NCBI RefSeq assembly: GCF_030013205.1
Contig: NZ_CP122648.1
Reading direction: 5' to 3' (one strand)
DNA: 64,000 nucleotides
Source of the DNA: Escherichia coli
Lineage (GTDB): Bacteria > Pseudomonadota > Gammaproteobacteria > Enterobacterales > Enterobacteriaceae
Shown: positions 22,859-24,082 of the stretch, piece after piece
Position numbering within the stretch: position 1 is the stretch's first letter
Layout of the letters: each line of letters opens with the position of its first letter
The notes under the pieces: model-generated
Seen by the model: only the letters and a program-made list of their open reading frames with translations
What the model was told of the DNA's origin: nothing
Database searches by the model: none
Translations under genes and position numbers: made by a program

Positions 22859-24082
22859 TTATGGGATTATATTCTGGTAATGATTTGATAAGCGAATTCT
22901 TTTGCCAGATGGTGTTTCTATTTCCACCCCATAATTTATAGTTTTTTCATCAGGTAGCGATCTCTTTAAATAAGGTGCGTATGACATTTTTTTTGGGTTA
23001 AGCGTCTCGTATTGAAATACTTCGAATTGATATTCAGACATTTCTGCCCATGTTTGAATTTTATTGTATCGGGGTAGTGTCGTAAAGGCTTTAACTTGCT
23101 TATAACATTGTTTTTTGAATTCTTGCTGATATTTTAATATGTCATTGTATGAAATATTGGTTATCCTGGCCTCTAAGAATTTAATTATTGTCGAAGCAAT
23201 TTCCGCTTTTGCTCGTAAAAAGTTGTCATTAATGGTTAATAATGTTGAAAATAAACCTTCGATTTGTTTGTCAAGATATTGTTCGTCTTTATATAATTTT
23301 GGGGTAGGGTGTTCTTTATGTGAAAAAATAGTGTCACCTAAATTTGCGTCAGTGAAATTTATATTAAGTAGATCTTCGAAATAAAACCTTGACAAGGTTA
23401 GAACGAACCCGGACAGGTTCTGTCCTGTCATATTGAAATCAATAAAGTTGGTTCCGGCAAAGACTTTCATCCTGTTTTTATTTTCACTGTGTTCAATATA
23501 TAACTTCGTCATTTTTTGATACAGGCTTTGAATATCTTTTATATTAGTCGGTAAGTCAGCTCGTTGTTCAGCAATAAAATTAGTATCTGAAAATATGGTT
23601 TGGACACTGAATGTTATGGGTATTCCCTCTTCTACGCTAATTTTAGTTATGATTGCCTTGTCGGGTTTAGGATTAGCGACAACAATGATTCGACATTCAG
23701 CACTTTTGTTCTTTTCGTATCTAATGTTATTAATTTGATTAAGTAGTCCCTGTGCCTGCCGCGTAAGTGGTGTCGAACTTATCGATTCAATGTTAGTAAT
23801 AAGACTTACAAGTTGAGCCACAACTTTTGAGTAGTCTGCATTTGTATATGTGGTGTTCGTGTGGCACGCATTAATTTGTTGGAGTTGTTGTTGCGCTAAA
23901 TCAAATTGTTCAGCGTTATATCCTTCTTCAGACAATGAAAAATTAATGGGTTGCTGTTCTTCCTGATTATCACAAGGCCACATCGGTGTGTCTGGTGTTT
24001 TAACATTGTCGGTATCTGTTGTGCGGTTATAAATATCGCCGTGATATGTATTTATCATACCTGGGGTAAAGTCAATTGACAT
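22859..24082 (-). CDS. yhiS: YhiS-like protein of unknown function with pentapeptide-repeat-like segment; intact here
   Basis: 407 aa ORF in AT-rich DNA; the segment [32 protein letters not shown] resembles pentapeptide repeats; position between slp and the ars genes. Confidence 0.6.

Follow-up and report, generated by a model that had tools for sequence, protein, structure and literature searches.

Does a gene that is broken in the laboratory strain of Escherichia coli code for a selected protein elsewhere in the species, and what kind of protein might that be? The question is raised by yhiS, which in K-12 has been described as an IS5-disrupted pseudogene (PMC8170033; PMC11677980). In the stretch of E. 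coli DNA analysed here, 64,000 nucleotides long and called the window below, the gene is uninterrupted. Our overall answer, which we hold as probable rather than firm, is that yhiS is a selected but dispensable, silenced gene for a binding protein with a single repeat module; our confidence is much lower for any specific role. The intact open reading frame (ORF) as such is not new: the gene is catalogued (b3504, UniProt P37635) and is a 'hypothetical protein' in thousands of genomes. New here are an overlooked repeat module, evidence of selection, the restricted distribution and a sharply bounded hyperdiversity. The gene and the features that bear on its reading frame and position are listed below.

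22859-24082, minus strand: yhiS coding sequence, 407 aa, intact (from the ORF list; the length equals that of intact alleles annotated elsewhere)
24088-24092, minus strand: Shine-Dalgarno-like AAGGA, 5 nt before the yhiS ATG (read from the sequence)
22987-22997, minus strand: C3A8 homopolymer tract in yhiS, where a 1-nt deletion leads to the 371-aa O157:H7 protein (from the allele nucleotide alignment and the O157:H7 annotation)
24663-26068: variable insert upstream of yhiS with two divergent genes, an ArsP-type permease (minus strand, Pfam PF03773) and an ArsR/SmtB-type regulator (plus strand, HTH_20/HTH_5)

The yhiS frame begins with an ATG and is open throughout in the ORF list of the window, and the AAGGA upstream makes a good ribosome-binding site. 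The uninterrupted 407-aa ORF reported in the first-pass annotation is therefore confirmed. In the allele alignment, the MSIDFTPG start and the C-terminus are common to alleles as low as 62% identity, and 407 aa is the usual full-length form. PGAP labels the identical DNA of strain K_EC180 'frameshifted', with an end coordinate that matches a 371-aa product. We considered this flag as a sign of a non-intact gene and rejected it as a probable artefact of the truncated 371-aa O157:H7 reference protein. The native length is 407 aa, because intact copies of 1,224 nt are annotated in many strains and the last 28 residues are kept even in the 62%-identical allele. The C3A8 tract is broken up in more divergent alleles, which confines the slippage-prone site to some alleles.

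The window gene is the orthologue of K-12 yhiS, i.e., the same gene. Both occupy the arsC-slp locus, the K-12 5' fragment is 94.8% identical to the window gene over 746 nt, and the window protein is 76% identical to the UniRef cluster named YhiS (P0068). The two copies differ in that IS5 splits yhiS of the K-12 derivative, whose 3' piece also carries a frameshift, whereas the window copy is full length; the IS5-disrupted K-12 pseudogene of the first-pass annotation thus agrees with both the sequence and the papers cited above. The window and eight other strains all have yhiS at the edge of the acid fitness island, with arsC on one side and slp on the other, and the O157:H7 orthologue Z4907 serves as a border gene of that island (PMC9729726). 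The gene order in the window is arsB-arsC-(ArsR/SmtB-like regulator and ArsP permease)-yhiS-slp-dctR-chuS-chuA. The position between slp and the ars genes was therefore given correctly at first, but the two-gene insert that separates yhiS from arsC went unmentioned.

Several features of this neighbourhood were recorded along the way. The ArsP/ArsR insert is full-length in 2,219 of 5,426 E. coli genomes and has some match in 2,390, with plasmid copies at 364 places. It is missing in K-12, O157:H7 and strain 83972, and an IS110-family element adjoins it in some strains (L010, L011). Between the ArsR-like gene and arsC, at 26111-26149 on both strands, naRNA4 scored 29.7 bits, below the threshold of 59.5. 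The arsR-gor region holds two full-length matches to Rfam AgrB on the minus strand (28477-28560 and 28711-28794; 106 and 98 bits, threshold 40). They fall where K_EC180 has dinQ annotated, and they presumably represent the known pair agrA/agrB, each member having scored as AgrB. A shuA/chuA 5' UTR RNA thermometer (RF02597) lies at 18216-18247 on the plus strand, scores 60.1 bits against a threshold of 58 and ends at the chuA start codon. Positions 42162-45697 hold three further AT-rich ORFs of the YhiJ/YhiL family (GC 0.34-0.37): those at 42162-42974 (DUF6860 and the start of DUF4049) and 42986-43813 (the rest of DUF4049) look like one split gene, and the full-length 540-aa paralogue at 44075-45697, unlike yhiS, shows 95-99% identity in nearly every genome with a copy. 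YhiS was compared with these AT-rich genes (YhiJ/YhiL, DUF4049) and proved unrelated.

Comparison of GC content and codon usage upheld the strong AT-richness that the first-pass annotation had claimed relative to the flanking genes. The GC content of yhiS is 0.345 and its GC3 is 0.306, against medians of 0.534 and 0.614 for the 32 long ORFs of the window, among which its codon-usage index is second-lowest; the GC content is 0.493 for the whole window, 0.455 for slp and 0.514 for arsC. This composition had been taken to suggest horizontal acquisition. It is indeed foreign-looking, but because we found no donor or relative outside E. coli/Shigella, composition is the sole basis for that suggestion.

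The range of the gene was established with several collections. Full-length YhiS relatives among 5.8 billion protein clusters were all labelled E. coli or Shigella, or carried no label. None from outside E. coli/Shigella was present in 1.84 billion representative proteins, where the other matches were fragments of the same gene. Two fragments (P0150 and P0129) were considered as distant homologues and rejected, as they come from noisy, gap-ridden E. coli contigs about 96% identical to the window. Peptide patterns taken from the allele alignment had no match in 100,044 species genomes (one per species), a scan that a diverged motif would escape. The back-translated pattern EDLLN[IV][ND]FTDANL likewise had no match there, as would be expected if the single E. 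coli genome were a 3'-deleted one; N-terminal patterns were matchless too, which a 3' deletion in the E. coli representative would not account for.

Within the species, yhiS has a match in 5,414 of 5,426 complete genomes, always on the chromosome, and at least 80% of the gene is present in 3,993 of the 5,426. Its 3' half is absent in 1,066 (about 20%); in strain 83972, the deletion leaves only the first 378 nt, frameshifted. IS1 insertions were also found among the complete genomes. The gene has thus been broken repeatedly, by IS5 in K-12, by IS1, by the deletion in about 20% of genomes and by the homopolymer frameshift in O157:H7. The Keio deletion of yhiS was without a chlorhexidine phenotype (PMC8170033). 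The gene is real, yet dispensable and often lost, and full-length relatives were found in E. coli and Shigella only.

The first-pass annotation also mentioned a pentapeptide-repeat-like segment in YhiS. This segment proved real, and it forms the centre of a larger module.

23318-23467, minus strand: pentapeptide-repeat core, residues 206-255, 10 pentads, predicted to make about 2.5 coils of a four-sided beta-helix (from the period-5 run of L/F/M)
23252-23527, minus strand: whole repeat module, residues 186-277, with the pentads between two 'LY...K.(L/I).G' linker motifs (from alignment to modules of about 70 aa)

In residues 206-255, L, F or M is central in ten consecutive pentads, and N or D stands just before it in six of them. 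None of 20,000 shuffled sequences reached a run of ten, and periods of 3, 4, 6 or 7 yield no run longer than 2-3. Several pentads have a bulky or charged residue at i-2. The Pfam models score YhiS below their cut-offs (PF00805, 12.7 bits against a gathering cut-off of 20.2; PF13599, 7.8 bits against 38). An exhaustive phmmer search of the 1.84 billion representative proteins revealed four large proteins, not alleles of yhiS, that match YhiS at E 1.6e-5 to 8.8e-4, and each of the four is itself a strong pentapeptide-repeat protein (PF00805 E 1e-46 to 1e-90). Residues 186-277 align with one complete tandem module of about 70 residues in the large proteins P0152 and P0160-P0162, with both linkers ('LY...Y.DK.L.G') included and 23-30% identity. 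These proteins, with their 'QLYSTxSYxxKDLxG' linkers, have 5-15 tandem modules together with secretion-associated domains, some with PATR or dockerin, whereas YhiS has a single module. A profile of 17 alleles, compared with the PDB sequences, matched for the most part pentapeptide-repeat proteins, and always at residues 202-256 (Rfr32, E 0.006; TL15, E 0.16; QnrB1, E about 3). The similarity of the segment to true members of the class is thus weak, though it recurs from search to search.

The beta-helical fold for which structure prediction had been proposed received partial support. The full-length AlphaFold model, built with the 17 alleles, had a pLDDT of 35.5 and was unusable. A model of residues 186-300 reached a pLDDT of 71-76 on the pentads, with short strands every 20 residues, but only with modules of true pentapeptide-repeat proteins in its alignment. 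Foldseek placed it on Rfr32 with 0.7 Å over 43-44 aligned positions, a fit that is partly circular because of those modules. For the same reason, the model is no independent evidence for the fold. Its Foldseek matches were nearly all pentapeptide-repeat proteins, none at E <= 0.001, and the best was the O157:H7 effector NleL (probability 1.00, E 0.084). We therefore take the fold prediction as only suggestive and a beta-helix of the pentads as likely. YhiS resembles the PF00805/Rfr-fold proteins (Rfr32, PDB IDs 2f3l and 2g0y; QnrB1; MfpA) in its tandem pentads with central L/F/M, often preceded by N/D. It differs from them in scoring below the Pfam threshold and in having only about 2.5 predicted coils, with far fewer pentads than Qnr or MfpA.

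Outside the repeat, 350 of the 407 residues have no match. The regions on either side of the pentad module are predicted to be helical and evolve fast. YhiS has no signal peptide and no membrane or hydrophobic segment (the top 19-residue hydropathy is 0.99), and its N-terminus is polar, rich in Thr, Asn and Pro, and lacks a Sec signal; from its sequence, the protein is predicted to be soluble. Searches of NCBIfam, PADLOC and PHROGs gave nothing meaningful for YhiS, and no family among the PADLOC defence models matched three divergent alleles at E <= 1.

Is such a protein under selection? YhiS alleles share 62-97% protein identity. For pairs of alleles, dS rises to 0.56-0.68 and dN is 0.16-0.23, with dN/dS of 0.26-0.53; for slp in the same strains, dS is 0.025-0.059 and dN is 0.002. 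The ratio pN/pS is lowest in the pentad core (pN 0.05-0.12, pS 0.4-0.58). The longest invariant nucleotide run among the alleles, TTCACTGACGCAAATTT (17 nt), codes for FTDANL within the repeat. In columns 100-160 and 320-380, pN about equals pS, and in some segments it matches or exceeds pS. Thus, yhiS is a coding gene under purifying selection, which is strongest in the pentad core. The module of ten pentads, with a predicted 2.5 or so turns and two linkers, is the only recognisable element of the 407-aa protein and its most constrained one; a short rigid beta-helix between fast-evolving helical regions may offer a binding surface for a protein partner.

The diversity of yhiS, a more unusual property that the first-pass annotation missed, ends abruptly on one side of the gene. 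Three features are relevant here.

22048-22614, minus strand: slp, the conserved downstream neighbour used as control (annotated in the identical strain K_EC180)
24083-24470, minus strand: AT-rich non-coding region upstream of yhiS, as divergent as the gene (71-84% identity to L009 in 100-nt windows; GC 0.34-0.37)
22759-22786, minus strand: GGGGCG...CGCCCC hairpin downstream of yhiS, where the allele divergence fades (read from the sequence)

In 100-nt windows against the most distant allele, identity is 71-85% from about 24460 to 22770 and then 98-100% through slp and dctR. The divergent block is therefore sharply bounded, about 1.7 kb long, and includes the upstream non-coding DNA. In an alignment of seven alleles, the divergence is over by about 22720, and beyond that point the sequence hardly varies up to the start of slp. 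The slp gene starts 245 bp (about 250) downstream of yhiS and is at least 95% identical at the nucleotide level in all 5,417 genomes with a match. The hairpin at 22759-22786 is not followed by a T-run on the yhiS strand, and the next 120 nt or so, as far as the start of slp, hardly differ among the seven strains. The alleles are also mosaic: over its first 300 nt, one allele has 91-97% identity to the window and beyond that 78-86%, and others show the reverse.

To place these values, records in the complete E. coli collection were sorted by identity to the window copy of each gene, or, for espX1, to the Sakai allele.

yhiS: 17 records at >=99%, 1,348 at 95-99%, 2,573 at 90-95%, 1,476 at 80-90%
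slp: 2,948 records at >=99%, 2,469 at 95-99%, 0 at 90-95%, 0 at 80-90%
arsC: 163 records at >=99%, 4,831 at 95-99%, 425 at 90-95%, 59 at 80-90%
DUF4049 gene (37% GC, same window): 37 records at >=99%, 4,223 at 95-99%, 21 at 90-95%, 0 at 80-90%
espX1: 321 records at >=99%, 1,562 at 95-99%, 1,759 at 90-95%, 10 at 80-90%

These records place yhiS among the most variable fixed-position genes of its neighbourhood. AT-richness alone does not explain its diversity, because the AT-rich DUF4049 control falls below 95% in only 21 of 4,281 records. The arsC gene (26191-26616) is also more divergent than slp, with dS of 0.13-0.32 against 0.03-0.06, which implies that the raised diversity reaches, in weaker form, into the ars side of yhiS and stops abruptly on the slp side. 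The espX1 gene of O157:H7 Sakai (L012, 8331-9752) was found in E. coli only, apart from a 69%-identical E. albertii protein, and has no Pfam domain above threshold; roughly one third of E. coli genomes lack it or have only a fragment, and about half of its copies are below 95% identity to the Sakai allele.

Published data on regulation come from K-12, where yhiS is broken, rather than from this strain. A section on H-NS complex formation counts the arsC/yhiS intergenic region of K-12 among the 'promoter islands' (PMC3661553), and yhiS is named among the high-affinity StpA/H-NS sites of K-12 (bioRxiv 10.64898/2026.02.10.705075). Over-expression of YdeO in K-12 induced slp-dctR and left yhiS unaffected (PMC4222967). 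In the window, two 9/10 matches to the TCGATAAATT motif lie at 23776-23785 and 24107-24116 and are uninformative by themselves. Promoter-like and terminator-like sites are no commoner than in shuffled sequence, and Rfam has no RNA family inside or adjoining yhiS. In this strain too, yhiS would be kept mostly silent by H-NS/StpA, like other AT-rich, foreign-looking DNA. The gene resembles H-NS/StpA-silenced ORFans in its low GC, its single-species range, a protein that evolves faster than its neighbours and its binding by H-NS/StpA in K-12. It differs from them in that its synonymous and non-coding divergence is also about ten times that of the adjacent gene, which the AT-rich control of the window does not show.

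Three other explanations have to be weighed against a selected, dispensable and silenced gene. The frequent inactivation of yhiS would also fit a gene on its way out, as would the segments where pN and pS are about the same. On that reading, yhiS was acquired or arose once, was silenced and is now a decaying remnant without function, its diversity reflecting relaxed constraint and recombination among old lineages, and the window copy is simply not yet broken. The many independent inactivations agree with this, as do pN values about equal to pS over large parts of the protein, the lack of a known phenotype (PMC8170033), the indifference to YdeO that sets yhiS apart from slp-dctR (PMC4222967), and its place within H-NS/StpA-bound DNA in K-12. 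However, the 407-aa frame is open across alleles at dS of 0.3-0.68, and a 1.2-kb AT-rich frame would not last unselected. The overall dN/dS stays at 0.26-0.53 and is clearly lower in the pentad core, the start and C-terminus are conserved, and most genomes (3,993 of 5,426) retain at least 80% of the gene. We consider a functionless remnant unlikely. A DNA mimic of the Qnr/MfpA/AlbG type, protecting or modulating topoisomerases, is extremely improbable: QnrB1, MfpA and AlbG are among the weak sequence and structure matches, but these cover the pentad segment only and are generic to any pentapeptide repeat. Moreover, YhiS would have about 2.5 coils (50 residues) against a continuous beta-helix of about 180-220 residues (about 8-10 coils) in those proteins, which have no counterpart of its other 350 residues.

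In the third explanation, YhiS is effector-like or takes part in a conflict: it would be a cryptic type III secretion substrate or would interact with phage or host factors, and its diversity would be maintained by diversifying or frequency-dependent selection. EspX, NleL, SopA and PipB2 are type III effectors with pentapeptide repeats. Like EspX1 and NleL/EspX7, YhiS is AT-rich, restricted to Escherichia, diverse among strains and missing in some lineages, with a degenerate, short pentapeptide segment; espX1 shares with yhiS the chromosomal backbone location, a repeat segment below threshold and the lack of any Pfam domain above it. It is likewise unusually diverse, with 1,769 of 3,652 records below 95% identity, against the 21 of 4,281 in the AT-rich control. 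NleL as the best structural match of the sub-region model, the polar N-terminus without a Sec signal, the segments where pN roughly equals or exceeds pS, and the confinement of the divergence to some 1.7 kb with sharp limits point the same way. However, no homology to the EspX effectors is detectable beyond the generic repeat, and secretion of YhiS is only hypothesised. A faintly collinear BLASTP match to EspX1 (E 0.057) was ruled out as homology by profile-profile comparison (hhalign probability 1%). The NleL match is unspecific, because pentapeptide beta-helices all look alike, and NCBIfam, PADLOC and PHROGs gave no match. Because the non-coding DNA upstream has diverged as much as the synonymous sites have, the diversity need not stem from selection on the protein and could come from old lineages that recombine. 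On present evidence, we consider this third explanation quite unlikely, and we are just as doubtful of the corresponding view of the locus, in which a conserved beta-helix core with diversifying flanks exists as deep mosaic alleles held by balancing or frequency-dependent selection. If that were true, yhiS would be an unrecognised polymorphism hotspot beside the acid fitness island.

The reading that we prefer, a selected but dispensable gene whose predicted beta-helix may bind a partner and which H-NS/StpA would keep mostly silent, makes yhiS an E. coli 'y-gene' that escaped study because the copy in the laboratory strain is broken. Natural isolates offer the starting points, namely an intact form that is selected, a constrained pentapeptide core that standard annotation misses, and high variability. 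Should selection lie behind the diversity, the locus would point to a so far unknown interaction between E. coli and phages, hosts or competitors; should the cause be history only, yhiS would show cleanly how a silenced gene confined to one species persists and decays.
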